Below, one piece after another: positions 11,432 to 47,602 of a stretch of DNA of 64,000 nt. Position numbers and translations under genes: made by a program. How positions within the stretch are numbered: position 1 is the first letter of the stretch; every line of letters begins with the position of its first letter. Source of the stretch: a virus. Under the pieces are notes generated by a model, which searched no databases, was not told the origin of the DNA, and worked only from the letters and a program-made list of their open reading frames with translations. Location: positions 19,598 through 83,597 of the IMG/VR virus record IMGVR_UViG_3300036829_000104. One strand, given 5' to 3'.

Positions 11432-11833
11432 CTAGCGGACGAGAGTCGCATCCACGAAACGCTGCACAGGCTCGAAAAGCCCGTGCGGGACATACTCGGA
11501 CAGCTCGCCGATCCGCACGAACTCCACCCGGTCATGCTCCTCCGGGTCGCCGATGTGCGGCGTCCCCGCGATCACGTCGCACGCCACATAGGACATGTGC
11601 CTCTTTGTGGCGGGGTGAATCCTGGAGCCCAGAAGCTGCCGCGCCTCCACGGTCAGGCCCGTCTCCTCCAGCGTCTCGCGGACCGCGGCCTCCTCGACCG
11701 ATTCGCCCGGCTCGACACCGCCGCCAGGTAGTGCCCAGAGGACCGTCCCCTCCTGCTCCCGCCGCCGGGCCAGCAGCAGCCTGCCGTCCTGCACGATGAC
11801 GGCGGATGCGATCGCGGGCTTGGCTTCAGACAT
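11432..11833 (-). CDS. Nudix hydrolase (Pif-like position)
   Basis: Intact Nudix box GGGVEPGESVEEAAVRETLEETGL. Confidence 0.92.
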   Translation of the reverse strand: MSEAKPAIASAVIVQDGRLLLARRREQEGTVLWALPGGGVEPGESVEEAAVRETLEETGLTVEARQLLGSRIHPATKRHMSYVACDVIAGTPHIGDPEEHDRVEFVRIGELSEYVPHGLFEPVQRFVDATLVR

Positions 11834-12464
11834 GCTGGCCCTCCAGAGCCTCTAGGACCGGCGGGAAGATGCTCCCGCGCGGGATGTGCTGTTCGATCTC
11901 GGCCGCCGGCGCCCACATGACGCCGGCGTTCTCGTCCTCATCCTTGTTGACCGGCTCGCCGCTCACCCATGAGCATGCGAAGTACTCGCACCGGACGCCC
12001 GTGACGGGATGAACCCTGCCGCCCAGGTGCTCCGTTACCGAGCATTCGACGCCCGTCTCTGCGAGCGTCTCCCGGACCGCAGTCACCGCCGGGTCGGCGC
12101 CGGTCTTCACAGTCCCGCAAGGGAAGCCCACCCGGATACCGCTGTTGTCGTCCCTCCGCCGCACCAGCAGCACGTCCGGGCCGCGCGTGACGATCGCCAT
12201 CGCCACCCGGTACATCTGCGGGCCGACCGGGTTCTCCGGGCTGGACAGCTCCCCGAACCGCGACCGCTCCGCCGGCGACGCGGCGGCGTACGCCCGGTCC
12301 AGTGCCCGCTGTTGCGCGGCCCGCGGCCTGGTGCCAGGCTGCTCGGCCCATCCGGCGACGGTACGCGGGGCGACCTGAAGGCGTGCGGCGAAGCCCTCGG
12401 TGGTCACGCGCAGGGCAATGCGCAGGGCCGTCGCGTCCTGTCCAGTCCACGTCCGGCCTGCCAT
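11826..12464 (-). CDS. HTH-Nudix fusion with degenerate Nudix box
   Basis: WTGQDATALRIALRVTTEGFAARLQVAPRTVAGW HTH plus GTVKTGADPAVTAVRETLAETGV. Confidence 0.85.
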   Translation of the reverse strand: MAGRTWTGQDATALRIALRVTTEGFAARLQVAPRTVAGWAEQPGTRPRAAQQRALDRAYAAASPAERSRFGELSSPENPVGPQMYRVAMAIVTRGPDVLLVRRRDDNSGIRVGFPCGTVKTGADPAVTAVRETLAETGVECSVTEHLGGRVHPVTGVRCEYFACSWVSGEPVNKDEDENAGVMWAPAAEIEQHIPRGSIFPPVLEALEGQHV

Positions 12465-12621
12465 CTGGTTACCGCCTCAAACTGCAATGGTTCCGCATGG
12501 TGATCATCGCCGCCGCGCGTTTGACTTAGCGGCATGAGCCCGCAAGAACGCCGACGGCTCGCCGCGGCCCTCGATGTCATCGAGACGCGCCTCGAAGCTG
12601 TTGAGCGCGGCGTTGCCGACC

Positions 12622-12963
12622 TCACTGCCGAGCATGATGCGCCGTCTTCAGTTCGGCAAGCTCCCGCTCGACAGCCAGTAGCCGCTCGCTGAGGTTTTCC
12701 ACTCTCGCGGCGATACCCGCGTCGGACGGGGGCGGCTTGCGCACGAACGTGCCCATGCCGTGAATCGTCTCGGCGATGCCGAGATCCCGCAGCACGCCGA
12801 GCGCCTTGTCGATCGTGCCCTTGGATGCCCCGTAGTGCTTCTCCAGCTCGGCATACGTGGGCATCTGCGCGTCCACGGGCCATTCACCGCCGTCGATGCG
12901 CTTGCGCAGATCGTCGGCGATATGCCGGTACACGGCCGGGTTCCTGCCTCCTCGCTGCACCAT
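12622..12963 (-). CDS. GntR-family regulator (KorA/KorSA/TraR-like)
   Basis: YRHIADDLRKRIDGGEW...MPTYAELEKHYGASKGTIDKAL...GMGTFV; divergent from the transfer operon. Confidence 0.9.
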   Translation of the reverse strand: MVQRGGRNPAVYRHIADDLRKRIDGGEWPVDAQMPTYAELEKHYGASKGTIDKALGVLRDLGIAETIHGMGTFVRKPPPSDAGIAARVENLSERLLAVERELAELKTAHHARQ

Positions 12964-13016
12964 AAGGCACAGCGTAGAGGGCGGAACTTAATTAGGAAAC
13001 CCAGGGGTGAGTTATC

Positions 13017-13062
13017 CCTTGACTCTCCTATGACAGTCATGGCAGACTCAAGACTGTCAAGG
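13017..13062 (+). promoter_or_regulatory. promoter of the transfer operon with overlapping inverted-repeat operator
   Basis: TTGACT-N18-CAGACT; TGACAGTC (13031-38) and GACTGTCA (13052-59) inverted repeat. Confidence 0.6.
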
Positions 13063-13091
13063 CGCTGCGGACGCTACCGCAGCAGGAGAGC

Positions 13092-13373
13092 GTGAGGACG
13101 GTACGCATGCTTGAGACCCCCGTCAGCGAGTGGGTTGACCTCGGCTACATGGCCGACAAGACCGGCTTCGACGAGGTGACGCTGCGGCGCCTGATCGACT
13201 CCGGGGATCTCCCGGCAATGCAGGTCGCAGGCGCGACGCGCACTTCCCACAAGATCCCGCGCCGCCTGGTCGACGAGGCTTACGCCGCGGTGATGGCCGG
13301 CGCACAGGTTGAGCTCCGCGCATTCGCCCGCAAGTGGGCCCAGCGCAACTCCGCATCCAAGGCGGTGGCATAG
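13092..13373 (+). CDS. excisionase-like HTH DNA-binding protein
   Basis: MADKTGFDEVTLRRLIDSGDLPA...KIPR; AGGAG RBS. Confidence 0.7.
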   Translation: MRTVRMLETPVSEWVDLGYMADKTGFDEVTLRRLIDSGDLPAMQVAGATRTSHKIPRRLVDEAYAAVMAGAQVELRAFARKWAQRNSASKAVA

Positions 13374-13523
13374 ATGACCGCCGACCTCGACATCTGCCCG
13401 TCCTGCTGGCGCGAGCACCCGGACTCCGAGCCGTGCACGAGCCTCGCGCAGCGGGCCGCAGACAACACCGCGCTCCTCGCCCGCGAGGCCGCTGAGCGGC
13501 TGACAGCGGAGGCATGTGACTGA
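13374..13523 (+). CDS. small Cys/His protein
   Basis: MTADLDICPSCWREHPDSEPC..., read manually, abuts the upstream stop. Confidence 0.5.
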   Translation: MTADLDICPSCWREHPDSEPCTSLAQRAADNTALLAREAAERLTAEACD

Positions 13524-13741
13524 CATGGCCCGTTCCGCTGCAACCCCCCGAACCGAAGGAGCGCCATGCGCGCTGACCCCAAGCCCCCGGACCCGGAGGA
13601 CTGTGTCCTCTGCAACGTCCGGGGTGCCGGCTGCCCGTTCCACGGGCGCGGCTCCCGCTGACCCGGAAATGACGAACGCCCCGCAGTGGTGGTGCACCCG
13701 GGGCGCTCTGAGCTATCCCAACCGCCTGGAAAGGAACTCTG

Positions 13742-13882
13742 ATGCGCAACCTAGCACGCCTGTCACTCCTGCGCCCCCTGACTCGCCGGCGCGCCGTCCG
13801 GACGCTGACCGCCGAGGCGATCGCCGCCGCGGAGCAATCCGGCTACAACCGGGCGAAGGCCGAGATGGCGTCGTCGTCATGA
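13742..13882 (+). CDS. small hypothetical protein
   Basis: GAAAGGA RBS, MRNLARL..., ATGA overlap with the next gene. Confidence 0.5.
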   Translation: MRNLARLSLLRPLTRRRAVRTLTAEAIAAAEQSGYNRAKAEMASSS

Positions 13883-14055
13883 CACCCGCCTCCGTCACGC
13901 AGATCAACACCAGGCAGGACATGTCCCGCTGGACCCGCGACCACGCCGACAAGCCCGGCATCAACTGGTCCACCGAGGCTGGCCCCGGCGGAACGATGAT
14001 CATCGTCGAGCACGAGGCGGACCGCACGACCGCGGGAACCGGGGTGCCGGCATGA
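13879..14055 (+). CDS. small hypothetical protein
   Basis: Coupled ORF MTPASVTQ. Confidence 0.55.
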   Translation: MTPASVTQINTRQDMSRWTRDHADKPGINWSTEAGPGGTMIIVEHEADRTTAGTGVPA

Positions 14056-14288
14056 GCACGCGCAAGCGCACCAGCGGGCCGGACTTCATGGAGACCATGG
14101 CCCACGGGAACGACATCAACGCGATCCGCATGGCCGCCCTCGACATAGCCCGCGACCTGTACGGGCCGAACGCCCGGCTGGCGATCGAGGACACCGGGAC
14201 CATCCAGAAGGCGGTCGCGACGCACAAGGGCCGCTTCTGTGCCCACGTGACGGTCCGCTGCCTCGACTACCCGGCGGAGGAGCTGTGA
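14052..14288 (+). CDS. hypothetical protein
   Basis: Coupled ORF. Confidence 0.65.
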   Translation: MSTRKRTSGPDFMETMAHGNDINAIRMAALDIARDLYGPNARLAIEDTGTIQKAVATHKGRFCAHVTVRCLDYPAEEL

Positions 14289-14773
14289 GCGCGAACCGCA
14301 CAAGCCTCCAGTTCAGCCCCGGCGCCGCAGGCCCGGTGCTGCGGGAAGACCTGTCGTGGCAGGACGGGGCGGCCTGCCAGTACACCGACCCCGAGATTTT
14401 CTTCATCGAGAAGGGCGGCAGCCCGGCGCCCGCGAAGCGCGTCTGCCGAGGCTGTGACATCCGCGTGACCTGCCTGCAGTGGGCGCTCGACACCCGGGAG
14501 CGGTTCGGGATCCTCGGCGGCATGTCAGAGCAGCAGCGGCGCGGCATTCTCCGGCTCGGCCTCACCGCGGCCGAGGCGATCGCGGAGGACGGCAGCCGGC
14601 GCCTGCGGAATGCGGCGCAGGAAGCCGCACGGCAGGACCAGCGCAATGAACGGGACCGTCAGCAGCGCGCCGGGGCGCGCGCGATGGCCGCCGGCTCGGG
14701 TACCCCGGCGCCTCAGCTCAGAGACGAGGGCGGCCAGTTCCTCGCTCAGGTATCAGCGGCAAAAGCCGCGTAA
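14285..14773 (+). CDS. whiB: WhiB-family Fe-S transcription factor
   Basis: WQDGAAC..TDPEIFF...AKRVCRGCDIRVTCLQWAL...FGILGGMSEQQR. Confidence 0.93.
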   Translation: MSANRTSLQFSPGAAGPVLREDLSWQDGAACQYTDPEIFFIEKGGSPAPAKRVCRGCDIRVTCLQWALDTRERFGILGGMSEQQRRGILRLGLTAAEAIAEDGSRRLRNAAQEAARQDQRNERDRQQRAGARAMAAGSGTPAPQLRDEGGQFLAQVSAAKAA

Positions 14774-14787
14774 CGAAAGGAAACCCT

Positions 14788-14985
14788 GTGAAAACCTTTA
14801 TCGGCGTCGTCGTGATCGTGGTCGACGCCATCGTGGTGAAGGCGCTGATGATCGCCCAGCATGCCCCGCACGCCGGCAACAAGGTGGCGGAAGCCGCAGT
14901 CGTTCTCTTCGTCGCCAACGTGGTGATCTTCTGGCAGCTCAGCAAGGCGAAGAAGGCCACAACCCCGTTCGGCGGTTCCCGGTGA
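14788..14985 (+). CDS. small 2-TM membrane protein (Spd-like)
   Basis: Two hydrophobic stretches; GAAAGGA RBS. Confidence 0.7.
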   Translation: MKTFIGVVVIVVDAIVVKALMIAQHAPHAGNKVAEAAVVLFVANVVIFWQLSKAKKATTPFGGSR

Positions 14986-15203
14986 AGGCGACCGCCCCGC
15001 CGGAGCGCGTGAACTGGCCGTCGGTCGTCGCCGTGTTCGTCGCGCTGCTGATCCTCATCGCGGGGGTCGCGGGGATGGTCGGCTTCGTCCACGCCCATAA
15101 CTGGCTTGGCGTCGCCGACATCATCGGCTCGTGGCTGCTGGCGATCGGCGTGGGATTGGTCGCCGAGCGGATCACGCGCCCCCGCGCGAGGGGGCAGCGG
15201 TGA
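14982..15203 (+). CDS. small 2-TM membrane protein (Spd-like)
   Basis: VVAVFVALLILIAGVAGMVG / IIGSWLLAIGVGLV; GTGA coupling. Confidence 0.7.
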   Translation: MKATAPPERVNWPSVVAVFVALLILIAGVAGMVGFVHAHNWLGVADIIGSWLLAIGVGLVAERITRPRARGQR

Positions 15204-15331
15204 CACGCGAACTCGTGCTCGCCGCCGCGCACACCGCCGCCGCGCACCAGTCGAACATCCCCAGCTGGATCGCCCTCATCGGGGGCGCACTCCTCATCGC
15301 GCTGATCATCCGCGGGAAGAAGAGGAGCTGA
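15200..15331 (+). CDS. small membrane protein
   Basis: WIALIGGALLIALII plus basic tail. Confidence 0.6.
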   Translation: MTRELVLAAAHTAAAHQSNIPSWIALIGGALLIALIIRGKKRS

Positions 15332-15337
15332 CCGCTG

Positions 15338-15886
15338 ATGCGCAGGTACCGCTACCCGTACCGCCGCAGCGACGTCAGCCCGCGGGCGGTTGCCGTGGTG
15401 CTGGGCGCGGTCGTGGTGCTGGCGGCGGTGCACGCGCACTCGCCGGCCGGGACCGGCGGCACGCACGCCGGGAAACGGCATGCGGCCTCCCCGTCCCGGG
15501 AAGCCCGGACCGCGGTCGCCTACGCCGAATCCAAGGTCGGCCGGGTGCCGTACGTGTGGGGCGGCGTCACCAACGCCGGGATGGACTGCTCGGGCCTGAC
15601 GTGGAACGCGTGGGGCGATGCCGGGGTGCACATCGCCCGCACCTCCCAGGACCAGTGGGCGACCGAGCACCGGGTCTCCAGCCCCGCAGCCGGGGACCTG
15701 GTGTTCTTCGCCGGCGTGGACGGAACCGCCGAGGCCCCCGGGCACGTGGGGATCGTCACCAACCCGTCCCGGCACCTGATGATCGACGCCTACGGCGCCG
15801 GAACTTACGTCCGCTCCGACACCTACGGACTCGCGTCCTCGGCACCGGGGCTGTCCGCCGTCATCGGCTACACCAGCCCCGCATAA
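15338..15886 (+). CDS. membrane-anchored NlpC/P60 peptidoglycan endopeptidase
   Basis: PYVWGG...DCSGL...PGHVGI; N-terminal TM helix. Confidence 0.92.
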   Translation: MRRYRYPYRRSDVSPRAVAVVLGAVVVLAAVHAHSPAGTGGTHAGKRHAASPSREARTAVAYAESKVGRVPYVWGGVTNAGMDCSGLTWNAWGDAGVHIARTSQDQWATEHRVSSPAAGDLVFFAGVDGTAEAPGHVGIVTNPSRHLMIDAYGAGTYVRSDTYGLASSAPGLSAVIGYTSPA

Positions 15887-15922
15887 CCCCCATCCGCCAC
15901 CACTCCCGAAGGAGAGCACATC

Positions 15923-16114
15923 ATGTTCCTCGTCAAGGCGGCTGTCATCGTCGCCATCGGCCTGTTCGTCGCGGCCTACGGGGCCGACCACGTCGCCGCC
16001 GCGATGAACATCCCGGTTAACAGCGCCCCGATCACCGTGCTTGCGGTCGCAATCGAGGTCGTGTTCAACGTCGCCGTCTACCTGGTCCTGCGTCGCCGCG
16101 ACGCCAGGTCCTGA
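15923..16114 (+). CDS. small 2-TM membrane protein
   Basis: Hydrophobic; GAAGGAG RBS. Confidence 0.7.
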   Translation: MFLVKAAVIVAIGLFVAAYGADHVAAAMNIPVNSAPITVLAVAIEVVFNVAVYLVLRRRDARS

Positions 16115-16145
16115 CCAGGTTCATCGTGCTGAGGGGCCGCAGCGA

Positions 16146-16433
16146 ATGAGCACCCGCGCCGCGCTGATCTCCGGGACCGTCCTGTCGGTCGCCGTCACCT
16201 GCGCATGGTCGTGGACGGCGGACGCGCTCGCGGGGCCGATTCCGGATCCGCACCTCGGGACTGGGCTGCGCGCGGATTACGCGCAGCTCGCCGACTCGGC
16301 CGCAGGCGGCCCCGGGATCGCGCTGTTCGCCACGATCGCCGCGATCTACACGCTGTGCCTGTTCGTCTCCGGACTGCGGCGGATCCGCCGGGAGCAGGCC
16401 GCGCGGGAGCAGATGGCGGGTGATCGCCGGTGA
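16146..16433 (+). CDS. 2-TM membrane protein
   Basis: Two hydrophobic segments; coupled to the next gene. Confidence 0.65.
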   Translation: MSTRAALISGTVLSVAVTCAWSWTADALAGPIPDPHLGTGLRADYAQLADSAAGGPGIALFATIAAIYTLCLFVSGLRRIRREQAAREQMAGDRR

Positions 16434-16960
16434 GGCGCTACACGACCCATTCCCGGTCGGGCGGCTCGGACTCGGGCGTGACCGCTGTCCTGGTGATCGC
16501 CGGGATCATTGCGGTCGCCGGCGCCGGCAAGGGAGCCGCGGCAGTCGTGACACACCACCACCACTCGGCGCACGTCACCGCCGCCGCGGTCACGTCCGGC
16601 AGCGAGCGGGCGTTCATCCGCGCGGTCCTCGCCGACCTCGGCGCCCCGGTCAACTCGGCGAACACGGCATCGCTGGCCGGATGGTTCACCCGCGAGTTCC
16701 CGGCGTGGCCGCCGTACGCAGCCGAGAACCCTATGTCGTCCACCCAGCGGATGCCCGGCAGCACCACCTACAACAGCGTCGGCGTCCAGAACTACCCGAC
16801 AGCCTCCGAGGGCGCGCATGCAACTGCGATAACCCTCGCGAACGGCTACTACCCGCGCGTCGTCGCCGCCCTGCGCTCTGGCCGGGGCCTGTGCGGCAAC
16901 CCCTCTATCGCCGGCGAACTACTCACCTGGTCCGGCAACGGCTATTCGGAGGTGTGCTGA
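16430..16960 (+). CDS. membrane-anchored lysozyme-like cell-wall hydrolase
   Basis: N-terminal TM; W..RE...NP...T...NSVGVQNY...G..AT..TL.NG.YP lysozyme-like pattern. Confidence 0.65.
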   Translation: MRRYTTHSRSGGSDSGVTAVLVIAGIIAVAGAGKGAAAVVTHHHHSAHVTAAAVTSGSERAFIRAVLADLGAPVNSANTASLAGWFTREFPAWPPYAAENPMSSTQRMPGSTTYNSVGVQNYPTASEGAHATAITLANGYYPRVVAALRSGRGLCGNPSIAGELLTWSGNGYSEVC

Positions 16961-16963
16961 TTT

Positions 16964-18517
16964 ATGACCGTGACACCGTTCCCTGCACGGCAGCACGCCG
17001 ACCGGACGGCTCCGGCGGCGAGTGACTACGCCTCGTACCGAGACCTGTCTGACGACGCGTACCGGGCTCTCCCGGACCACGCCATGCTCAGCGTGTCGGC
17101 CGAGTTCTCCGACGTGCCGCACGCGATCGGCTACGCGGACAGCCCCGCCGGACTGCTGCCTATCATCCGCGGGATCCCGGCCTCGTACCCGGCAGCGACC
17201 GAGGCGGATCTGGCATGGCTGGAAGACGGGATCCAGCACGAGGCGCAGCATGCCGCCGCGGCCACTGTGCTGGGATGCTCCAGCCGCTTCTGCATCACCA
17301 TGACACCGCTCCCGGGCGGCGGCGTGCACGCCAGGCCGTGTTGCTCATGGGTGTCTCGCCGGCCGCTCAGCAAACTCGCCATCGCGTCGATTGCCGCCGC
17401 GCCCTCAGACCCGTCACCGGACGACCTCGCGGACTTGCGCCGCATGGGATACCGCGACGCGGACGACGTGGCCGAGCGCATCCGCAGGTTCAACCGCCGC
17501 GCCCGGTACCCGTTGCCACTGCCGGCCGGCGCGCAAAACGGCTATCGAGGCGGAGCACGCGGCTGGAGGCGCCGAGTTCCTCACCTGATCCGGCGACGAC
17601 TATTCGGAGGTCTAACCATGTCAACCACTGAGAACAGAATCCCTGAGCTGCGGGTGCGCCGCGGGGTAAGCCACGCGGTCACCTCGGCCGGGCTCATCCT
17701 CGGCACGTTCATAGCGGTCCTGGCCATGACGAACGGGCTGCGGCTGCGCCTCGGCGGTATGCCCGAGCTTCCCGGCGTCGTCTTCGGCGCGCTGCTCGTG
17801 TGGGCGCTGTTCGTGGCCGCGGCGTTCCTGCTGGCCGAGATGACCCGCCGCCATCACAAGACGGCGGCCCGGTATGCGGCGCGGCAGGGGAGCCGCGGCG
17901 CGTCCGCTGGCGGCCAGGCCCTCCGCAGGCAGGCGCTGGTGCTCTTTGAGATCGGCGTCGCGTGGGCCGGGCCCCGGTGGCATACCCGGACGACCAGAAC
18001 CCGCAGCGCGCCGGATGATGTCACGCCGGCAGCGCCCGTAAGCCCCTCCGCGGACAACGCGGAGGTCAGTCAACCCGAAGGAGAAGACATGACGACACCA
18101 CTATCCGGACGCGGCCGTGTCAGCCGCATCGCCCCTGACCGGCGGGCGCGGCGCGTCGCATCCCGCACCGGCGGCCCGATCTCGACACTGTGGGCCGCAC
18201 TGGAACGCCGCGCCTTGGACTTCGACCCTGAAGGCGAAGGCGATTACCTCGACTATCTGAATGAGGACACCGTCGGCATCTCCGCCCTAGCGGAGGCAAA
18301 TGTCGAAGTGTACGGAGGCATGACCAACGACAAGGGAGCCGACCCGCAGGCCGTGGCCGCGTTCCACGACTACGCCGACGCCTTGGTGCACGCCGCCGAG
18401 ATGGCCACCGCCGCTAAGAAGGCGTGGACCGAGCGCTACGAACTGCCGCGCGAGTCCGCCGCCGAAGGCGTCCAGATGACGCACGACGGCCGGTTCATCA
18501 CCGGCGAAGGCGACTAG
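16964..18517 (+). CDS. composite ORF: HExxH metallopeptidase-like domain, 2-TM domain (start 17618) and TraA-like helical domain (start 18089)
   Basis: HEAQH motif; internal GGAGG and GAAGGAG RBS before in-frame ATGs; lies directly upstream of traB. Confidence 0.6.
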   Translation: MTVTPFPARQHADRTAPAASDYASYRDLSDDAYRALPDHAMLSVSAEFSDVPHAIGYADSPAGLLPIIRGIPASYPAATEADLAWLEDGIQHEAQHAAAATVLGCSSRFCITMTPLPGGGVHARPCCSWVSRRPLSKLAIASIAAAPSDPSPDDLADLRRMGYRDADDVAERIRRFNRRARYPLPLPAGAQNGYRGGARGWRRRVPHLIRRRLFGGLTMSTTENRIPELRVRRGVSHAVTSAGLILGTFIAVLAMTNGLRLRLGGMPELPGVVFGALLVWALFVAAAFLLAEMTRRHHKTAARYAARQGSRGASAGGQALRRQALVLFEIGVAWAGPRWHTRTTRTRSAPDDVTPAAPVSPSADNAEVSQPEGEDMTTPLSGRGRVSRIAPDRRARRVASRTGGPISTLWAALERRALDFDPEGEGDYLDYLNEDTVGISALAEANVEVYGGMTNDKGADPQAVAAFHDYADALVHAAEMATAAKKAWTERYELPRESAAEGVQMTHDGRFITGEGD

Positions 18518-18591
18518 CCCTCACCCACCGTTCCCCGCCGCCGTGCGCTTGCCCGGCGGCGGGGACCTGACCAGAAGCGGAAGGAAGTCCA

Positions 18592-20853
18592 GTGGCCATA
18601 AAGGCGCCGGAGCGATGGGCACCGGAGCGGCCGTGCCAGATCCCCGGGCACCCGCACGACGACGGAGACGACGCGCGTGTGCTGGTCAGGGAGTCGCCGT
18701 GGCAGCGGATGCTGTCATGGCTCCAGGTCGCGCCCGCCGAGCGGCTGCCGCTGCCCGCATTCGTGACTGCGTGGCCCGTCACGGAGATCATGCACGCAGC
18801 CGGCGTCCCCGGCTACGTCCCGGGCTGCGCGACATGCGCCGCCGCCGTCGCGGCGTGGCTGACCTGGTACCGGCATGGGAAGCGATCAGAGCATCCCCGG
18901 CTCGCCGCCATGGAGGCCGCCGCCGTCGCTGCCGCTGCCGGCGGATGGATCACCGCCGCCGACATATGGGGACCGCTCGGCTGGCCCGTCCACATGCTCA
19001 GCCTCATCTACCTCGCCGGATCCGCCGGCGGGTACTGGTGGCTGCGGAGCCACGAGGCTGTCCGCGCCGCCCGCCAGCGCCGCGACGACGCCGCCGCCGC
19101 GATCGCCGACAGGCGCCGCTGGCATCAGGTCCTGCACCGGGCCGGGCTCGGCGGCTGGCACGTGCAGTGGCGCCGCGACACCAACCTCGGCGAGGAGCGG
19201 CTGATCACCACCAGCCCGGAGAACGCGTCCGCCAAGCAGATCGCCGCGAACAGCAGCAGGATCGCGGAGAAGCTGGAGCACATCCTCGGCCTGCCCTACA
19301 ACCGGGTCGACATCACCACGACCGGCCTTCCGGGCGAGCTGATCATCGGCATCCGCACCGTCGACGTGTCCTCGCGGAGCGCCGCCTACCATCCGTTCAC
19401 GCTGCCGTGGCCTGAGTCTAAGCCGTCACCGTTCGCGGACTGGTTCCCCCAGACCGCCAGTATCCGCGACCCGGCCGTCTGGGGATTCTCGCCCGAGGAC
19501 AGTTCCCCCCTGGCCGCCCAGCTGCTGTCCGACATCGGCGGCCGAGTCGTCGGCGTGTTCGGCATGACCGGCTCCGGCAAGTCGAACCTGCTCAACGACC
19601 TCCGCGAGTTCGTCACCCGCTGCCCTGACGCCCGCATGGTGCAGCTGAACGGCGCGCACATGGGTGACGAGCTGACCTGGCAGCCGCTGTCCGCGCTGAC
19701 GCGATGCGGCTCGGTCCAGACCAACGAGAACGTCCGCAACGACATCGCCGAGATCCTGGAGGCGCTGTGCCTGCTCGTAACCGAGCGGTCAGCCACCCTC
19801 GCGGAGACCGGGCATTCCACGTTCCAGCCCACCCCGGACAACCCGGCCGTCGTCATCTTCATCGACGAGGTCGACGAGATCGTCAAGTATGTTCCCGGCG
19901 CCGGGGAGAAGCTGGAGTTCCTCGCCAGCAAGCAGCGCAAGAGCGCGGTGTGCCTGATTCTCTCGACTCAGCGTGCCGTGATCAAGGCGATCGGCGGCGG
20001 TGCCGTGCGGGCGAACATGAGCGAGGCCATCGTCGGCGTGGTCGCGCGGGGCTCTGAATCCCGCCACGCCACCGGCGCTGAGAGCGAGATGCCGGACATC
20101 CGCGAGTACAGCGGCGGCGCCCCCGGGTATTTCCAGACATTTGACCCGCATTCAAACTCCATCACCGGCCGGGGCCGGACGTTCCTCCTCGGCGTGCCCC
20201 CCGAGGAACTGGCCTATATCAAGCGTCTCGTCGCGGCCCGCCGGGACCTGCGGGACTGGGGCATCCCCGACATGCCGGAGATGGACCTGGATGGCGGTGA
20301 GGCGGTTGGTGAAGCCGCCGCGGGCGAGACGACGCGGGAAGTTACGGGCCTGCGCGAACGGCTCGCCGCCGCCCGCGACAACGCCGCGGCACAGCCCGCG
20401 CCTGCAGCGCCTGCAGCGGCGAAGCCCGAGACTCCTGCGCCTGCTGCCGCGTCCCCGTTCGTTCTAGGCGTTCCCCCCGCTGCCGTGGCGCAGCTCATGC
20501 GGATGATGGGCGACGAAGGGCGGGTGTCTGCCGCGTCAGCCGGGCTCGCCCTCGGAGCGTCGAAGACCGTCGCCTTCGAGTACCTGGCCGCGATGCGCGA
20601 TCGTGGCCTGGTTGAGCTTGACCGGCGCGGCCGGGCATCCGGCTGGCACCTCGCGCGCCCCACCGCTCCGGAACCAGCCAGCAAGGATGCCCCCGCCGAG
20701 GCGGATGACAGCACGCCCGCGGACAGGCCGGACGGATACCAGACCCTGGCGGATCTCGCGAGCGCGGTACGCGACGGGCTCGTAGACGTTGACGACGAGA
20801 CGCGCGAGGTTCTCGCGCGGGCGTGGGCACTCGAACATGGTGACGAGCAATGA
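18592..20853 (+). CDS. traB: TraB-like FtsK/SpoIIIE conjugative dsDNA translocase
   Basis: N-terminal TM helices, Walker A GMTGSGKS, Walker B IFIDE, STQR motif, C-terminal winged helix (GASKTVAFEYLAAMRDRGLV...GW). Confidence 0.88.
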   Translation: MAIKAPERWAPERPCQIPGHPHDDGDDARVLVRESPWQRMLSWLQVAPAERLPLPAFVTAWPVTEIMHAAGVPGYVPGCATCAAAVAAWLTWYRHGKRSEHPRLAAMEAAAVAAAAGGWITAADIWGPLGWPVHMLSLIYLAGSAGGYWWLRSHEAVRAARQRRDDAAAAIADRRRWHQVLHRAGLGGWHVQWRRDTNLGEERLITTSPENASAKQIAANSSRIAEKLEHILGLPYNRVDITTTGLPGELIIGIRTVDVSSRSAAYHPFTLPWPESKPSPFADWFPQTASIRDPAVWGFSPEDSSPLAAQLLSDIGGRVVGVFGMTGSGKSNLLNDLREFVTRCPDARMVQLNGAHMGDELTWQPLSALTRCGSVQTNENVRNDIAEILEALCLLVTERSATLAETGHSTFQPTPDNPAVVIFIDEVDEIVKYVPGAGEKLEFLASKQRKSAVCLILSTQRAVIKAIGGGAVRANMSEAIVGVVARGSESRHATGAESEMPDIREYSGGAPGYFQTFDPHSNSITGRGRTFLLGVPPEELAYIKRLVAARRDLRDWGIPDMPEMDLDGGEAVGEAAAGETTREVTGLRERLAAARDNAAAQPAPAAPAAAKPETPAPAAASPFVLGVPPAAVAQLMRMMGDEGRVSAASAGLALGASKTVAFEYLAAMRDRGLVELDRRGRASGWHLARPTAPEPASKDAPAEADDSTPADRPDGYQTLADLASAVRDGLVDVDDETREVLARAWALEHGDEQ

Positions 20854-20878
20854 GGAGGGGACGCACGCGAGGCGTGTA

Positions 20879-20961
20879 TTCGTTCGCAGACCTTTGTATG
20901 GGCTGGTCAGAACGTTCCCGAACGGTTCGGCGCCGATTCCGCGAACGAACCCGCGAACGAA
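20879..20961. repeat. CGAAC-motif cluster downstream of traB; candidate clt
   Basis: GCGAACGAA twice (20941, 20953), inverted TTCGTTCGC (20879), further GTTC/CGAAC copies at 20909-20930. Confidence 0.5.
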
Positions 20962-20983
20962 ACGCACGTGACAGGAGGGACGC

Positions 20984-22915
20984 ATGATGAGCGGATACGA
21001 AGAGACGCTGTACTCGCGCGCCGAGATGCTGGACGAGACCAGCGACCTCGCCGCCGAGGCCACGGAAGTGCTCGACGGGGCGTCCGGGGCCGGGGTCGAC
21101 CCGGCAGCCGTCACCAGCCTGCGGGCCGCAGTCCAGGCACTCGACCCAGCCGAAGGCGCCCCCGCCTACGACGCAAACCGGCCCGGCATAGGCTACCGCT
21201 CCGACGTCGAGTTCCTCGGGGCGGTCACCGACGCCGAGGACCAGGTCCGCGAGCGGCTCCGCGACGCTGGCACGCTCCGGGGCGACGCCGGCGAGGCGAT
21301 GGACAAGGCCCAGGATGACCTGGGACGATCCCGCCGCGACCTGCAAAACGCCCAGATGGCCCTCGCCGCCGCCTGCGCACTGCCCACCAAGGACCCGTGC
21401 GAGGGCTGCCATTCCGCCAAGGCCGCCGCGATCATGCAGGCCGAACAGGAGGTCGCCGACGCCGAGCAGGCCATCGCGGACGCCAGCCGGCGCATCAGCA
21501 CCCTCGGCGGCGCCCTGGAGATCCTCGACGCGCTCATCCTCAGGCTCACCGCCGCCGCGCAGGCACTCCGCCAGGTGCCCGCCGACCTGGGCGAAACCTA
21601 CGAGCTGATTGCCAACCTCATCCGCGACGGCGGCCAGATGACCCACGACGGCCGGTTCGTCACCGGCGAAGGCGACATGCCAGTCGGTGGCCGCCGCCCA
21701 AAAGACCAGCGGCGGCTGCGGAACACCCGAAGCGATCACGATGACAGGAGCAGCATGAACGGCACGCCGCCGGCCAGCGGCACGCAACTGCCGGCCGGAC
21801 CGGAGGCTGCCGCCGGCGGTTCGTCACCGGAGCCCGCCCGCAGGCTACTCGCCGTCCCGCGGCTGACGACAGGTCAGCGGTGGCTCGCAGGCGGAGTGGT
21901 CGCCCTCGGCCTCACGCTCACCCCGATCGCCTTCGGTGTCATGTACGTGAACGTGACCGGGTTGCTGCGGCCCGACCTGCACGGCGGCGCGTGGGCGGTC
22001 CCGGTCGGCACCGAAGTGGGATTCACTGGGCTGTTCCTCGCCGAACTGCTGCTGGAGTGGATCGGTAAGCCGCTGCGCTGGCTGCCCGTCCTTGAGTACC
22101 TTCTCGCCGCCGCGTCCATCGTCCTCAACGCCATCCCCGGCTGGGGAACCATCGCCGGGGTACTCGGCCACGAAGCTCTGCCGATCGTGTTCTTCGGCTA
22201 CCTGATCGTCGGGAAGGCGACAGTCCGCCGGCTCGCGGTCAGCGACGAGGCGAAACGACACGAGGTCGCCCTCGCTGACGCGCAGGCCCACGCCCGCGAC
22301 ATGCTCCGCTCGGCGCTCGGCATCAGATGGCGGATGAAGGCCCCGCTGATGCTGCGTCGCCAGCTCCGCTCCGGACGCCTCCCGGCGCGCGTGCTCGAGG
22401 CCGTGGAGACCGGCTCGGCGACCGAATGGGAGGATGCCGTAGAGACGTGGATCGCCGCCGCCGTGACCCTCCCGGAGCGCACTCGCGAGGTACTCCGCGC
22501 GGCCCGCGCCGAAGCCTCCGCGCGCCCCCTCCCGGACCCCTCGGAGAGCCCCTCCGCAGGCACCCCCGAGACCCCCTCCGGTACCCCCTCGGAAGACGCC
22601 TCCGCGAGTACCTCTGACGCCCCCTCGGCGACCCCTCCGGCGGCACCCTCGCGGACCGCTCCGAAGGCACCTCCGAAGGCACCTCCGAAGCCCCGCCGGC
22701 TGATCCCCTCGAAGGCGTCCGACGACGACCTCGCGGAGCTCATCATCCCGCTGCTGGCCGACGGTGAAGTGTCGCCGACCAAGGCGGTGAAGGTGATCCG
22801 GGAAGCAGCCGGAGGCAAGGCAAGCATCGGCCACGACCGGGCTAAGACGGTCATCGCGCTCGCGCAGGAACAGGCCAATCGCGTCGTCCCGATAGGGGAG
22901 CGGCGGCAGGCGTGA
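20984..22915 (+). CDS. coiled-coil protein read in frame with a DUF2637 (SpdB2/SpdA-like) membrane protein, the latter probably starting at 21755
   Basis: Four TM segments, Pro/Ser linker, C-terminal HTH-like IGHDRAK; AGGAG RBS before ATG 21755. Confidence 0.75.
   Translation: MMSGYEETLYSRAEMLDETSDLAAEATEVLDGASGAGVDPAAVTSLRAAVQALDPAEGAPAYDANRPGIGYRSDVEFLGAVTDAEDQVRERLRDAGTLRGDAGEAMDKAQDDLGRSRRDLQNAQMALAAACALPTKDPCEGCHSAKAAAIMQAEQEVADAEQAIADASRRISTLGGALEILDALILRLTAAAQALRQVPADLGETYELIANLIRDGGQMTHDGRFVTGEGDMPVGGRRPKDQRRLRNTRSDHDDRSSMNGTPPASGTQLPAGPEAAAGGSSPEPARRLLAVPRLTTGQRWLAGGVVALGLTLTPIAFGVMYVNVTGLLRPDLHGGAWAVPVGTEVGFTGLFLAELLLEWIGKPLRWLPVLEYLLAAASIVLNAIPGWGTIAGVLGHEALPIVFFGYLIVGKATVRRLAVSDEAKRHEVALADAQAHARDMLRSALGIRWRMKAPLMLRRQLRSGRLPARVLEAVETGSATEWEDAVETWIAAAVTLPERTREVLRAARAEASARPLPDPSESPSAGTPETPSGTPSEDASASTSDAPSATPPAAPSRTAPKAPPKAPPKPRRLIPSKASDDDLAELIIPLLADGEVSPTKAVKVIREAAGGKASIGHDRAKTVIALAQEQANRVVPIGERRQA
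22513..22695 (+). repeat. degenerate 12-bp-period repeats (CCCCTC(C/G)G core)
   Basis: Recurring ...ACCCCCTCCGG / ACCCCCTCGGA..., ending in CTCCGAAGGCAC tandem copies. Confidence 0.7.
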
Positions 22916-22981: not shown

Positions 22982-23317
22982 ATGGATAACCTGATCGCGT
23001 TCATCGCGGCGCGGCTGGACGAGGACGAGGCAATCGCGCGGAAAGCGGCCAGCCTGCAAGCCGACCCCGAGAACGGGTGGGGCATTGACGGGCGCGCGAT
23101 CACTCCGCACATCGGCGTCATCCACGAGGACGAATCCCGCATCCACATCGCCCGCCACAACCCGGCCCGCGTGCTCCGCGACGTCGAGGCCAAGCGGGCG
23201 ATCCTCAACGGCCGGTGGGGCGGCCCGGACCATGCAGACATGTGGGAGTCTTGCGTCCAGAACCTTGCCGCCGTCTGGAGCGACCACCCGGACTACCGCG
23301 CCGAATGGAAGCCGTAG
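22982..23317 (+). CDS. DUF6221-family protein
   Basis: LIAFIAARLDEDE...HIARHNPARVLRDVEAKRAIL...DHPDYRAEW. Confidence 0.8.
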   Translation: MDNLIAFIAARLDEDEAIARKAASLQADPENGWGIDGRAITPHIGVIHEDESRIHIARHNPARVLRDVEAKRAILNGRWGGPDHADMWESCVQNLAAVWSDHPDYRAEWKP

Positions 23318-23455
23318 CCGCAGCCAGTAGAGCCGGCAGAGACGAGTGAAGCGGGGGCCGCTGCGCCCCCGCTTTCGCTATCTGGTACCCGTCGCCCGGT
23401 CCCCTTATCTCGCGTTACGTTGGCACCACTCGCCCCCATCGGTGATGATGTGCCC

Positions 23456-24427
23456 ATGTCCCTCGGTGTCCCTTCCGCGTTTGATCCTGACAGCCAGCGC
23501 GAATGCGCCCGCGGCACCTGGTGTGCCGCCTCGACTCGCGATCCCGAGGGGGAGTGGCATCCGGCGCTGACGTATCAGCCGTTCTGCCCGGCCTGTACCG
23601 ACGCGATCGTGCGGGCAGCCGCCGACCTGCCCCGCGCCTACCGCATGCTCGCCGCCCGCGTCACCGACCCGGTAGCGTCCGGTTCCCGCTCCGGCATCCG
23701 GATGCCGCCCGGCTCCCGCGTCCTCATCGACGCCACCGCCGAGGCGCTCATGCAGACCGCGGCCGTCACCGCCGGGGGATGGGCGGCACGCGTCCGCGCC
23801 GTCCCGCAGCTGGCCCTCGCCCGCCACGGCTTCGCACATGCCACCCCCGAAGCCGTCGCCGCCGACTGCGGGGTGCTCGCCCGCTTCCCGGGCCCGCTGC
23901 TCGCCCTCCAGCACGGCTACATGACCCGCGAATGGACATGGGCACCGGGGAACCCGATGCCCGACGACCTCGCCGACGACCTCGCCGACCTGGAAATCAG
24001 CCGCATCGGCGACGGCTGGGTCAACGCGGTCACGTACCTGTCAGGCGAAGACGCAGGCCACGAGATCCTCGCACTGTCCCGCCGCATCATCCGGCATCTC
24101 GGCGAGACCCCGGCACCCCCGGCGATGCTGGACGGCATCCCGTGCCGCACCTGCGAGGAGATGGCGCTCGCAGTCGCCGAGCTGCCCGTCGCGGAACGCG
24201 GCGACGGCGACCCGGAACCTCCCTACTCACGCTGCCTGCGCTGCCGCGCCGAACTGTCCCGCGCCGACCACGACGCCTGGGTGCGCATGTACGAGTCCTG
24301 GGCGAAAGGCGCCGGCATCCTGGTCTGCAAGCGCTGCGAGAACGGCGACTGCGGAGACTGCCAATGGGACTCGTGCGAATGCCGCGCGCACGGGCACGAC
24401 ACGCGGCGACTCGCCGACGCGGCCTGA
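23456..24427 (+). CDS. Cys-rich (zinc-ribbon) phage protein
   Basis: Several CxxC pairs; precedes the HTH gene. Confidence 0.75.
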   Translation: MSLGVPSAFDPDSQRECARGTWCAASTRDPEGEWHPALTYQPFCPACTDAIVRAAADLPRAYRMLAARVTDPVASGSRSGIRMPPGSRVLIDATAEALMQTAAVTAGGWAARVRAVPQLALARHGFAHATPEAVAADCGVLARFPGPLLALQHGYMTREWTWAPGNPMPDDLADDLADLEISRIGDGWVNAVTYLSGEDAGHEILALSRRIIRHLGETPAPPAMLDGIPCRTCEEMALAVAELPVAERGDGDPEPPYSRCLRCRAELSRADHDAWVRMYESWAKGAGILVCKRCENGDCGDCQWDSCECRAHGHDTRRLADAA

Positions 24428-24533
24428 GTGGCAGCACCCCATAAAGGGGTATAACATGTGGCTCGGTAGGAACAGTTGTCTTCACACGCCCCCGAGCCTC
24501 GCGGCCGGGGGCGTTTCGTGCTTTACGGGGGCG

Positions 24534-24809
24534 GTGGTCGCACTGCCGCGCCCGGACGGTTTCCTCACCACCCGCGAATCGGCGGCCCTCGTCGGCGTCA
24601 AGCCCCCAACCATCCGCGCATGGCGCGCATCCGGGCTGCTTGCCGTACAGGGCCTCGACGAGCGCGGGTTCCCGCTCCACACCGCCGAGGCCGTCCGCGC
24701 CGCTGAGCGCAAGGCTCGCGAGAGCGGGCGCGCCAGAGGCGGCTACGACCCGCGAAGGCTCCGCGGACACGAGGAATGGGAGCGCGGGAGACCCGCTCAG
24801 GCAGCCTGA
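24534..24809 (+). CDS. MerR-like HTH protein, possible late-gene regulator
   Basis: LTTRESAALVGVKPPTIRAWRASGLL. Confidence 0.75.
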   Translation: MVALPRPDGFLTTRESAALVGVKPPTIRAWRASGLLAVQGLDERGFPLHTAEAVRAAERKARESGRARGGYDPRRLRGHEEWERGRPAQAA

Positions 24810-25046
24810 AAACACGGGTGATCCGGTACAATACAAGTGAGCGAATTTACCGCTCTCACCTGCTACTTCTCCCCGGATCGGGTTGTCTCGTGCTGCATGC
24901 TCTCGCCATCGCCGCTGTCTTGCTCGCCGGTCCCGGCTGGCTCGGCCTCGTCGTCGCCATCCGCAACTGCGCGGCCCGCGATGCTGAGCAGGCCAGCCCG
25001 GAGCGAGATACGGCACGCGACATGAGGCTCGCAGCCTGACCGGGAG

Positions 25047-25388
25047 GTGCCCGTGACCGCCGCGCCCGCGCGCAAGCATCCCCGCACCGTCCTCGCCGTC
25101 ACTGGCACAGCCTGGACCCTCCTTTGGGTGACGCTCGGCAGTCTCTCCGACTGGGGCGCCTACTGGATCGCCTGGATCGCCTGCGGTTTTTTGGTCCCCG
25201 AGCTTTACGGGCTCGCCACGAACACGGCCCGCACCCTGTCCCGCAACACCTGGGCGCTGGAACACCTCGACTTCGGGCACCCGCTCGACTTTGCCGAATG
25301 GAACTGGATCCACTGGGCAGTCGCGATCATCGTCTGGGGACTCGCCGTGTGGCTCAGCGGACACCTGCCGTTCGGCGTCTGGCGATAG
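25047..25388 (+). CDS. membrane protein
   Basis: Trp-rich TM segments; GGGAGG RBS. Confidence 0.7.
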   Translation: MPVTAAPARKHPRTVLAVTGTAWTLLWVTLGSLSDWGAYWIAWIACGFLVPELYGLATNTARTLSRNTWALEHLDFGHPLDFAEWNWIHWAVAIIVWGLAVWLSGHLPFGVWR

Positions 25389-25398
25389 GAACAGGACC

Positions 25399-25572
25399 GT
25401 GAACGGCCTGTGCGAGTACGACGTGGCCGACACCGGCAGGCTCACCAGCGACGAACGCAAGGCACTGCTGAACGACATGGCCGCCGACGGCTGGCAACTG
25501 GACCACGTCGACGGCGTCCGCTACATCCTCAAGCGGCCGAGGCATGATCCCCGCGATCCGCGGGAACCCTAG
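25399..25572 (+). CDS. small DUF4177-like protein
   Basis: LLNDMAADGWQL...YILKRP. Confidence 0.5.
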   Translation: MNGLCEYDVADTGRLTSDERKALLNDMAADGWQLDHVDGVRYILKRPRHDPRDPREP

Positions 25573-37326: not shown

Positions 37327-37333
37327 GAGGAGC

Positions 37334-37579
37334 GTGACTGGCATGCCGGCGGTCATCACGGCTGAGGCGTTCGCGAGGGCGCTGGCCGGGGCAGGCGTCA
37401 TCCACGATATCCATCGCGTGCGCCGCGTCGTGGTCGACGCCGAGGCCGGATCCGCGGTCCGCGTCTATGTCGAGCGGTACGGCGACGAGCGGCTGCTGAA
37501 CGTCGTCCCGACGCTCAACGGCATTGAGATCATCGGCGTCCCGGCGGGCCCGGCCAACGACGAACGCAGGGAGCGGTGA
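37334..37579 (+). CDS. hypothetical protein
   Basis: GGAGGAG RBS. Confidence 0.65.
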   Translation: MTGMPAVITAEAFARALAGAGVIHDIHRVRRVVVDAEAGSAVRVYVERYGDERLLNVVPTLNGIEIIGVPAGPANDERRER

Positions 37580-37815
37580 TGACGGTTCTCGATCACGTCC
37601 CGGTAGAGCGAATCAGCGAGCGGGCCTCGTCGGTGCGGTTCTCCCGGGTCCTCGTCGCGGTGGTCGCCGGCGTCCTGTTCGGGCTCGGCTGGGTCGCGTA
37701 CAAGACCCTCGCAGTCGTGTGGTTCGCCGCGGTCTGGTGCGCGATGGCTGTTGCAGAGGGATGGGCTGATGCACGCAGGGGACAGGTGACACGTGGGCCT
37801 GCCCGAGCGGGTTAA
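37576..37815 (+). CDS. small membrane protein
   Basis: Hydrophobic ORF preceding the portal gene. Confidence 0.65.
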   Translation: MMTVLDHVPVERISERASSVRFSRVLVAVVAGVLFGLGWVAYKTLAVVWFAAVWCAMAVAEGWADARRGQVTRGPARAG

Positions 37816-39841: not shown

Positions 39842-39930
39842 CCCCATCACATCCCTTTCAGCGGGCCTCCCCGTGCGGGCCCGTTTCTGACGCTGCCCAG
39901 CCATCGACAAAGGAGAGGCGGCCGCTGTTC

Positions 39931-43218: not shown

Positions 43219-43300
43219 CAACCCGCCATACCGCAGGTCAGCGTCCGCCGTGCCGCACGGCAGACGCTGCCTGGGCGGCAATCCGCGCGAGGAGGCGCAC

Positions 43301-43564
43301 ATGGCTGATGGTGCCATCCTGGTGGCCACGAAGAACGTCCTGACCGACTTCGATGGGCGGCGGGTCATCCTCCGGCGCGGTGTCACCACCGTCCGGGAGG
43401 GTCATCCGCTCCTGAAGGGCCGGGAGTCTCTGTTCGAGCCACTGGTACCCGAGTTCGAGCTCGGGAAGTCCGAGGCCAAGGCCCCGGCGCAGCCGCGCCA
43501 GTCGCAGGGCAGGCCCGGCACCCGGCAGTCCCGGCCAGCGGGGCAGGGCAGCGGGAGTGAGTGA
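43301..43564 (+). CDS. small head-associated protein
   Basis: GAGGAGG RBS; directly after the capsid gene. Confidence 0.7.
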   Translation: MADGAILVATKNVLTDFDGRRVILRRGVTTVREGHPLLKGRESLFEPLVPEFELGKSEAKAPAQPRQSQGRPGTRQSRPAGQGSGSE

Positions 43565-45289: not shown

Positions 45290-45393
45290 GATCCGTCCTT
45301 CCGTCCGCTTTTGTGCGAGTGCTCCCAGTCTCTGACGCGCAGGAGCGGCTCGCGGTTCACCGCGCCGGCTAAACCACCCCGAAAGGAACGCGC

Positions 45394-45950: not shown

Positions 45951-45953
45951 GCC

Positions 45954-47582: not shown

Positions 47583-47602
47583 CGGAGGGGAGGTCCCCGG
47601 CC

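Follow-up and report, generated by a model that had tools for sequence, protein, structure and literature searches.

A candidate plasmid-type DNA transfer module in a temperate tailed phage of an uncultured actinomycete

Described transfer systems and the phage locus

The transfer loci of Streptomyces plasmids and of the integrative and conjugative elements of actinomycetes (AICEs) are built from a common set of parts, namely a GntR repressor gene divergent from tra, a Nudix gene, a single FtsK-like translocase, clt repeats and Spd-type membrane proteins (PMC2440964, PMC4447253). The clt of the Streptomyces plasmids consists of direct 8-bp repeats that are recognised by the cognate TraB, and SpdB2 is laid out as a coiled-coil N-terminal domain, a membrane part and a C-terminal domain (PMC4447253). 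A phage with such a transfer set has already been described: the plasmid-phage pZL12 (phage ZL12; GQ919031, 90.4 kb), whose conjugal transfer requires the major tra gene and two neighbours, as far as the account in PMC3583192 (citing Zhong et al. 2010) goes, and which has a syntenic relative in pSLE1 (PMC4487206). Here we analyse a 64-kb stretch of DNA (hereafter the window) from the viral record IMGVR_UViG_3300036829_000104 of IMG/VR. We read the block at ~11.4–25.6 kb of this window (Table 1) as a double-stranded DNA (dsDNA) transfer and spreading module of the Streptomyces-plasmid/AICE type that a temperate tailed phage, whose host is an uncultured actinomycete of high GC, has captured and made a native part of its genome, and we put the probability of this sequence-based reading at roughly 0.6. 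By analogy, the phage may also spread without virus particles, as shown so far only for pZL12.

In pZL12, the GntR gene pZL12.80 is divergent from an operon beside the late genes, which comprises the Nudix gene 76c, the membrane protein gene 73c, gene 72c and the FtsK-like gene 71c, and PLSDB holds six plasmids of ~88–102 kb with a Tra 77–90% identical to that of pZL12. The phage described here is alike in having a similar-sized tailed-phage genome and, beside the late genes, a GntR-divergent operon that encodes an FtsK-like Tra along with Nudix and membrane proteins, and the unusualness that the original prediction had claimed for the locus was to that extent overstated. Sequence matches between the two are limited to the Nudix hydrolase (11432–11833 against pZL12.76c of the tra operon; 39% identity, E 6e-11) and, weakly, the ATPase (~22% over 202 residues). 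The two also differ in that pZL12 is maintained as a plasmid by ParA/ParB, whereas the phage here has a serine and a tyrosine recombinase and no ParA, in that their virion genes are unrelated, and in that we detected no counterpart in pZL12 of the tail-motif pair or the NlpC/P60 protein of the phage. What is new here is a divergent translocase family, partner proteins with a shared tail together with a dedicated NlpC/P60 protein, the setting in uncultured Actinomycetota, and an integrase-bearing carrier without a partition system.

The transfer loci of pIJ101 (Tra/KorA/SpdA/SpdB/KilB), pSVH1 (TraB/TraR/SpdB2/clt) and pSAM2 (KorSA, Pif, TraSA, Spd) resemble the module in the divergent GntR gene, the Nudix gene, the small membrane proteins, the single FtsK-like translocase, which has a winged helix at its C-terminus, and the 8-bp repeats near the translocase gene; in addition, the coiled-coil and transmembrane (TM) protein of the module resembles SpdB2 in layout (PMC4447253). 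Unlike these plasmid and AICE loci, the module has an ATPase that fails PF01580 and has no plasmid relative by tblastn at 1e-5, a regulator without a UTRA domain, and NlpC/P60 and two tail-motif partners as core genes; it also lacks an integrase/Rep pair and is carried by a phage. With FtsK/SpoIIIE the ATPase shares the motor fold and the catalytic motifs, but it is a much shorter protein with a different N-terminal region and linker and without a match to the four-TM FtsK domain, and its gene lies on a mobile element with a repeat array of its own.

Translocase, repeat array and neighbouring genes

Genes were called by third-position GC (GC3) and scanned against Pfam, PHROGs and NCBIfam. The ATPase of the module carries a Walker A motif (GMTGSGKS), a Walker B motif (IFIDEVDE) and a TQR motif, of which GSGK, DE and TQR are invariant across 36 relatives. 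The Pfam scan gave an AAA_22 match below threshold, PHROGs gave a weak FtsK-like match, and NCBIfam gave no match for the ATPase or its partners; phmmer against the PDB sequences retrieved FtsK at E 0.05 only, and tblastn at 1e-5 returned zero matches in 72,556 plasmids (PLSDB) and 50,697 phages (INPHARED). An AlphaFold2 model built from 18 homologs, with a mean predicted local distance difference test score (pLDDT) of 65, is of high confidence at residues 170–470 and 620–690. Foldseek against the PDB placed the FtsK motor first (6t8b, E 8e-12), followed by the conjugation coupling protein TcpA and by EccC/EssC. The C-terminal winged helix is modelled as an H-H-H-E-E arrangement at residues 629–687 (pLDDT 73–89), and the C-termini of relatives match the winged helix-turn-helix (HTH) families HTH_IclR, MarR_2, HTH_24 and HTH_20 of Pfam. 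One search for the family returned more than 331 proteins and a second one 1061 representatives, mostly from soil metagenomes and nearly all unnamed; winged-helix families are matched by many of its members, PF01580 (FtsK_SpoIIIE) is touched by just 3 of 36 diverse ones.

We also compared a profile of the family (alignment A2) with reference proteins by hhalign. The profile aligned with pIJ101 Tra (97.8%, E 1e-12, 309 columns), with FtsK-like pZL12.71c from the tra region of pZL12 (98.1%, E 1.4e-13, 340 columns), and with the E. coli FtsK motor (97.2%, E 3.8e-11, 197 columns). The Tra alignments run from the last hydrophobic helix through the pre-motor region and the motor, while that with FtsK covers the motor only. 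Because only the Tra alignments include the pre-motor region, the profile comparison suggests that the ATPase has the architecture of TraB and is homologous to the plasmid Tra proteins, as a separate divergent branch. The original prediction of a TraB/Spd/Kor-type module is supported by this homology to two plasmid Tra proteins and by the clt-like array behind the ATPase gene. The protein is not a canonical TraB, failing PF01580 and finding nothing by tblastn in plasmids and phages.

Members of the ATPase family reach 1070–1280 aa in several cases (P0128, P0136, P0141, P0143, P0174, P0211, P0231, P0241, and also L005:9640-12864 and L008:5233-8532), and an insertion of ~350 aa at or near Walker A (profile position ~300–330) in these long members suggests a P-loop intein. 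Another homolog, P0005, is 81% identical to the ATPase and is encoded on an 84.8-kb contig.

The 130-bp spacer past the ATPase stop codon contains two direct copies and one inverted copy of CGAACGAA, plus degenerate copies, and the exact copies in the 64 kb number three, all at 20879–20961 (within 83 bp). Similar arrays occupy the equivalent place in five further elements, G002–G005 and the phage contig L001 introduced below, with a repeated word that differs between elements. In G002 and G003, (A/T)TCGTTCG-type words occur four times in direct and twice in inverted orientation, and the array of G004 has the same layout with AATCGCCCGG-type words; CGAACGG-type words make up the array of L001, and G005 has three to four direct AGGTCGG-type words and no clear inverted pair. 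Clusters of 8-bp repeats on the replicon of the translocase are what is expected of a clt, and we regard the array as a candidate docking site. An extra open reading frame (ORF) lies between the repeat array and the coiled-coil gene of L001 (L001:12301-12975); its product is GIY-YIG/T5orf172-like at the N-terminus and also carries a second winged-helix segment resembling the C-terminus of the ATPase, for which a second match was found in G001 (38042–38467).

The two proteins encoded on either side of the ATPase gene have a tail of ~40 aa in common, YEL..GG.M(T/P)HDGRW(I/V)TGEG (window 18401–18517 and 21563–21681), and this tail is found in every element in which both flanking proteins are readable (the present phage, hereafter G000, together with L001 and G002–G005). 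The tail may serve the motor as a docking peptide. In these elements the coiled-coil domain stands alone as a protein of ~235 aa, except in the two phage genomes, G000 and L001, in which it is fused to a four-TM SpdB/DUF2637-like domain, making the tail internal. The upstream partner, a core protein, is matched in 8 of 8 loci (L001–L008); coiled-coil residues 1–228 of the fusion protein are matched in L001–L005, L007 and L008, and its whole length solely in L001. In the ESM Atlas, residues 285–500 of the fusion protein lie near the DUF2637 (feature score 0.92) and SpdB_N (0.89) clusters, with structure TM-scores of 0.55/0.71. The ORF of the upstream partner begins with the segment that contains the HEAQH motif (GC3 0.83–0.93), and its homolog matches begin at residue ~220. 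A 42-nt direct repeat, D6, whose copies are 83% identical (16912–16953 and 17570–17611) and which contains the ribosome-binding site, brackets this segment, which looks like a gene that was inserted by junction duplication and is now read in frame into the next gene. For the whole ORF (16964–18517), which had been called TraA-like, we found no family match.

At the regulatory end of the block, the Nudix genes and the GntR gene divergent from a long operon, both part of the original prediction, are borne out by Pfam. The GntR regulator consists of a winged helix alone; its top NCBIfam matches are HutC-type, its HTH is 29% identical to that of pIJ101 KorA (E 2e-5), and we consider it a candidate Kor/TraR-like repressor. 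A full-length GntR+UTRA gene occupies the same divergent position in L005. The regulatory set of AICEs and plasmids, a HutC-type GntR gene divergent from tra plus a Nudix gene, is thus present, though with a regulator lacking UTRA. The two palindromes in the divergent spacer are a possible operator. By analogy with pSAM2 (PMC2440964), the first Nudix hydrolase is a candidate Pif-like transfer-immunity factor, and the HTH–Nudix fusion beside it is its paralog (34% identity). The HTH_17-like gene has a homolog at the same place in L001, and the WhiB gene is kept upstream of the module in L001, L002, L007 and L008.

Table 1. Features of the transfer block and of its carrier; positions refer to the window unless stated otherwise.
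Feature	Position	Strand	Support or remark
Nudix hydrolase, 133 aa	11432..11833	-	Pfam NUDIX 3.7e-24
HTH + Nudix fusion, 212 aa	11826..12464	-	Pfam NUDIX 6.8e-16, residues 84-192
Short GntR-type regulator, 113 aa	12622..12963	-	Pfam GntR 7.3e-12; divergent from rightward operon
Divergent intergenic spacer	12964..13091		TGACAGTCA and GACTGTCA palindromes around TTGACT-like box; read from sequence
Small HTH_17-like (excisionase/MerR-like) protein	13092..13373	+	Pfam HTH_17 7.5e-4, below cut-off; first gene of rightward operon
WhiB-like transcription factor	14285..14773	+	Pfam Whib 5.2e-21
Two small 2-TM proteins, 65 and 73 aa	14788..15203	+	Hydropathy; L001 counterparts 78% and 55% identical
Membrane-anchored NlpC/P60 peptidoglycan endopeptidase	15338..15886	+	Pfam NLPC_P60 7.8e-17; TM residues 11-38
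Two small membrane proteins, 63 and 95 aa	15923..16433	+	Hydropathy
Anchored or secreted protein	16430..16960	+	Conserved solely in L001
Extra coding segment with HEAQH motif, 218 codons	16964..17617	+	In frame with next gene; absent from L001
Core 2-TM protein, ~299 aa	17618..18517	+	Ends in tail motif YELPRE..G.QMTHDGRFITGEGD
TraB-like dsDNA translocase, 753 aa	18592..20853	+	Moderately hydrophobic helices at N-terminus, then FtsK-like motor and, at C-terminus, winged helix
8-bp repeats in clt-like array (CGAACGAA and related words in both orientations)	20860..20970		Directly after ATPase stop codon
Fusion protein: coiled-coil N-domain (residues 1-230), 4-TM DUF2637/SpdB-like domain (candidate), C-terminal domain	20984..22915	+	
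Trailing genes (DUF6221; Cys-rich 272-aa; 3-TM; 57-aa proteins)	22982..25572	+	DUF6221 8.6e-27
Virion module (TerL, portal-2H fusion, protease-capsid fusion, tape measure)	35953..51025	+	Pfam
Large serine recombinase	62559..63998	-	Pfam Resolvase, Recombinase, Zn_ribbon_recom
Second recombinase, tyrosine type (XerC/D-like; L027:656-1732)	Contig 656-1732, outside window		Adjoins serine recombinase

The carrier phage and the module in other elements

The window is the tail end of a single record (G000:C1:19598-83597; record total 83,597 bp). An exact 118-bp overlap between both record ends, which falls within the serine recombinase gene, closes the record into a circle of 83,479 bp without host flanks; in IMG/VR it is listed as viral, with direct terminal repeats, and CheckV estimates its completeness at 100%. 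GC is ~70% across the window with no shift at the module block, and the ORFs of the module are all open with a strong GC3 signal. An HK97-type capsid with protease, the large terminase subunit (TerL), a portal, a tape measure and a recombinase are encoded on this one replicon, which is the gene complement of a temperate tailed phage (Caudoviricetes). By Pfam, the portal is fused to a 2H phosphoesterase domain and the prohead protease to the capsid, and the tape measure is 1140 aa long; the replicon also encodes a DnaB helicase and an ERF recombinase. The closest cultured phages are distant (portal 43% identity to Gordonia phages; TerL 32%). As the original prediction had it, the module has no integrase or Rep of its own and stands within an apparently intact tailed-phage genome.

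The serine recombinase gene is cut at the window end and spans the circular junction, with its N-terminal piece at contig 3–287, and the two recombinases are neighbours ~30 kb from the transfer genes. The phage had been called integrative; the serine recombinase is present, but because the circular contig has no host flanks we infer integration from the recombinases alone. Homologs of the tyrosine recombinase, 30–40% identical, lie ~11–21 kb from the module in G002 and G004. With regard to the identity of the host, we looked for the ATPase family in 401 sampled genomes of the phylum and found it solely in the query metagenome-assembled genome (MAG).

The core module, which comprises the NlpC/P60 protein, the 95-aa TM protein, the two-TM protein, the ATPase and the coiled-coil protein, occurs in three contigs from IMG/VR and in contigs of MAGs from uncultured Actinomycetota. 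In G003 it occupies a stretch of ~12–16 kb with genes of glycogen metabolism, an IS66 transposase and a NACHT gene on one side and an AMP-binding enzyme and, further out, prolyl-tRNA synthetase on the other; in G002 a tyrosine recombinase flanks it on either side, with AbiTii and a relaxase-domain protein nearby; and in L005 the divergent GntR-UTRA gene is present and host purC and parA-like genes adjoin. The genomes of G003, G002 and L005 have zero Phage_capsid or Phage_portal matches genome-wide and no homolog of the portal or TerL of the phage. We thus regard the module as self-contained and as usually housed in small elements of an island-like kind. A module copy at 1–19.6 kb of a 430-kb contig binned as Gemmatimonadaceae (L006, 8591–9613) has an ATPase 42% identical to that of the phage and one in-frame TGA, and would reflect either mis-binning or transfer outside the Actinomycetota.

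The original prediction had proposed a search for related phage contigs with the same terL-traB linkage. A linkage of the module to phage genes recurs in L001, an independent 52.6-kb IMG/VR contig from another sample. This contig repeats the arrangement of the phage in the order left-flank gene (90% identity), operon with ATPase (78%), trailing genes, portal (63%) and protease-capsid. The closest portal relative, G407, has the hydrolases and the trailing genes, with a distant ATPase fragment at the contig end. Homologs of the trailing genes are found behind the module in L001, G407 (L028/L044) and L008, and they travel with the module in the phage lineage.

Several small proteins of the block are predicted to act at the envelope. 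Hydropathy bears out the small TM proteins that had been claimed, with 1–2 TM segments in each of four proteins (14788–14985, 14982–15203, 15923–16114 and 16146–16433), of which the 65- and 73-aa proteins are Spd-like by size and topology only, while the 95-aa protein is a core gene product matched in L001–L004, L006 and L007. Of two anchored wall hydrolases that had been claimed, the NlpC/P60 endopeptidase holds and is a core gene (present in L001–L005, L007 and L008, absent from L006), but the second, 16430–16960, has no match in Pfam, PHROG or NCBIfam. At or beside the position of the latter, L003–L005 and G407/L044 have a different domain, which resembles residues 960–1056 of the tape measure. 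These residues, which match no Pfam family, are 48–67% identical to a small separate protein beside NlpC/P60 in L003, L004, L005 and G407 (tape measure at 47603–51025), and the same wall-acting domain seems to be common to the phage tail and the transfer module. We also considered 16430–16960 as a paralog of the hydrolase-like domain of the tape measure, and the comparison showed no relation.

Mechanism, alternatives and meaning

If the module works as its parts suggest, the short GntR protein would repress the rightward operon in a Kil-Kor-like arrangement, and on derepression the TraB-like ATPase would form an FtsK-type ring at the membrane. Its C-terminal winged helix would dock on the downstream 8-bp array, acting as clt, and the motor would drive the circular phage genome, unprocessed, into an adjacent cell or hyphal compartment. 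The anchored NlpC/P60 endopeptidase would open the wall, and an envelope-spanning complex would be built by the small TM proteins together with the SpdB/DUF2637-like protein and the tail-motif pair, while the Nudix proteins, in a Pif-like manner, would prevent futile transfer between cells already carrying the element. We infer each of these functional steps from gene content, fold, Tra homology, the repeat array, conservation and the phage context. That the module functions as a capsid-free transfer route, with the whole phage genome as its cargo, is a conclusion by analogy to which we give about even odds.

Several observations weigh against reading the block as a transfer module. The predicted FtsK ATPase with a TM N-terminus and a C-terminal winged helix is confirmed in its motor fold and winged helix, but its PF01580 score is 16.2 bits where the cut-off is 24, and the four N-terminal helices (residues 54–143) are moderately hydrophobic, with Kyte-Doolittle means of 1.06–1.39 that fall below the strict TM cut-off, and have a pLDDT <50 in the model. 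TraB-specific ancestry of the ATPase is not proven, because the E-value for FtsK is within 1–3 orders of magnitude of those for the Tra proteins. The regulator is without the effector domain of KorA/TraR. As for the DUF2637 protein of the original prediction, hmmscan of 20984–22915 finds no DUF2637 even at E<=5 and BLASTP against pIJ101 SpdB gives no match, so that the SpdB/DUF2637 assignment comes solely from the embedding and structure match in the ESM Atlas and is a lead. We sought covariation of the recognition helix with the repeat word across the elements and found no clear link (the copy in G004 looks frameshifted), and the repeats might serve the downstream gene as an operator instead. 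The other portal relatives, all of them incomplete contigs, show no module, which is therefore not universal in the assembled fragments. Lastly, the host is an uncultured actinomycete, so "hyphal" conjugation is an assumption.

The alternative that survives best, although we consider it unlikely, is that the module is a DNA pump for the phage's own infection cycle, which would move replicating phage DNA across septal cross-walls in infected mycelium and so widen the zone of phage production or, together with WhiB, manipulate host segregation or development. It draws on the Spd proteins of pSVH1, which serve intramycelial spreading and not primary transfer (PMC4447253), on the WhiB gene, which lies in the same operon and is kept upstream of the module in several loci, and on the lytic Streptomyces phages that carry FtsK-like and WhiB-like genes without a conjugation context (PMC13587820). 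However, the same core is found in small phage-free chromosomal islands, where a role in the lytic cycle makes no sense, and partners of the GntR and Nudix kind usually belong to the control of transfer and to immunity (PMC2440964). A pump for the infection cycle and conjugation are, moreover, not mutually exclusive.

It is less probable still that the module is passive cargo, an AICE fragment that was captured without its integrase and replication genes and is kept by chance or for one gene (e.g. for Nudix- or hydrolase-based exclusion). The block indeed has no int or rep and a regulator reduced to its HTH, an extra segment is inserted at 16964–17617, the coiled-coil fusion (20984–22915) departs from the split form seen elsewhere, and there are module-less portal relatives among the assembled fragments. 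Against decay stand open ORFs with a strong GC3 signal, intact catalytic motifs and a preserved repeat array, as well as an order and content kept between two phages whose portals are just 63% identical. Between G000 and L001, the ratio of nonsynonymous to synonymous divergence (dN/dS; NG86 method) is 0.49 for the ATPase, 0.35 for NlpC/P60 and 0.54 for the portal, values that are crude and unreliable at such GC, where GC3 bias distorts dS (itself a point against the transfer reading), and usable only relative to the portal. By that measure, the ATPase and NlpC/P60 are constrained at least as much as the portal, whereas the 2-TM partner, with a ratio near 1, fits the view of passive cargo.

Far less credible is a protein-secretion or coupling ATPase of the EccC/EssC or TcpA kind that exports its two tail-motif neighbours and not DNA. 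EccC, EssC and TcpA are among the fold matches and the conserved C-terminal tail of the neighbours resembles the logic of C-terminal secretion signals, but the protein has one ATPase domain where EccC has three, it carries a C-terminal winged-helix DNA-binding domain next to a DNA repeat array, its best fold and profile matches are FtsK and the plasmid Tra proteins, and no WXG100-type genes were seen. Least of all do we credit an independent AICE inserted in the phage or a chimera of phage and conjugative element, since, although the core module stands alone in MAG chromosomes and the data are metagenomic, both junctions recur in the independent contig L001, the contig closes on itself by the 118-bp exact overlap, GC is uniform, and neither the integrase or Rep (Pfam, PHROG and NCBIfam scans between 9.9 and 25.6 kb) nor any convincing flanking att-like direct repeats were found that the original prediction had named as signs of an independent AICE. 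The recurrence of the arrangement in L001, the dN/dS values and the lack of a bounding integrase, Rep or att repeats thus argue against a chimera, a nested AICE and a decaying remnant.

Returning to the transfer module, we hold a wider version of this reading only tentatively and think it rather more likely to fail than to hold. Here, the module would represent a separate class of dsDNA conjugation modules in uncultured soil Actinomycetota, defined by a hitherto unrecognised PF01580-negative translocase family that is absent from cultured phages and plasmids, a tail-motif pair and an element-specific array. An integrating phage with 7-deazaguanine-modified DNA would move its whole genome virion-free and would thereby be a genuinely conjugative prophage from outside Streptomyces.

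Should the module be functional, temperate actinomycete phages would gain a second, capsid-independent route of spread, which would escape receptor-based resistance and extracellular neutralisation. The boundary between phages, plasmids and integrative and conjugative elements would be blurred, with consequences for how gene flow in soil is estimated. The existence of so divergent an ATPase family would mean that profile surveys keyed to FtsK_SpoIIIE miss part of the TraB-type conjugation in uncultured Actinomycetota. The element-specific arrays beside the translocase genes would offer a simple, testable system of protein-DNA recognition, and the shared C-terminal tail of the partners may provide a new handle on the assembly of the transfer complex.

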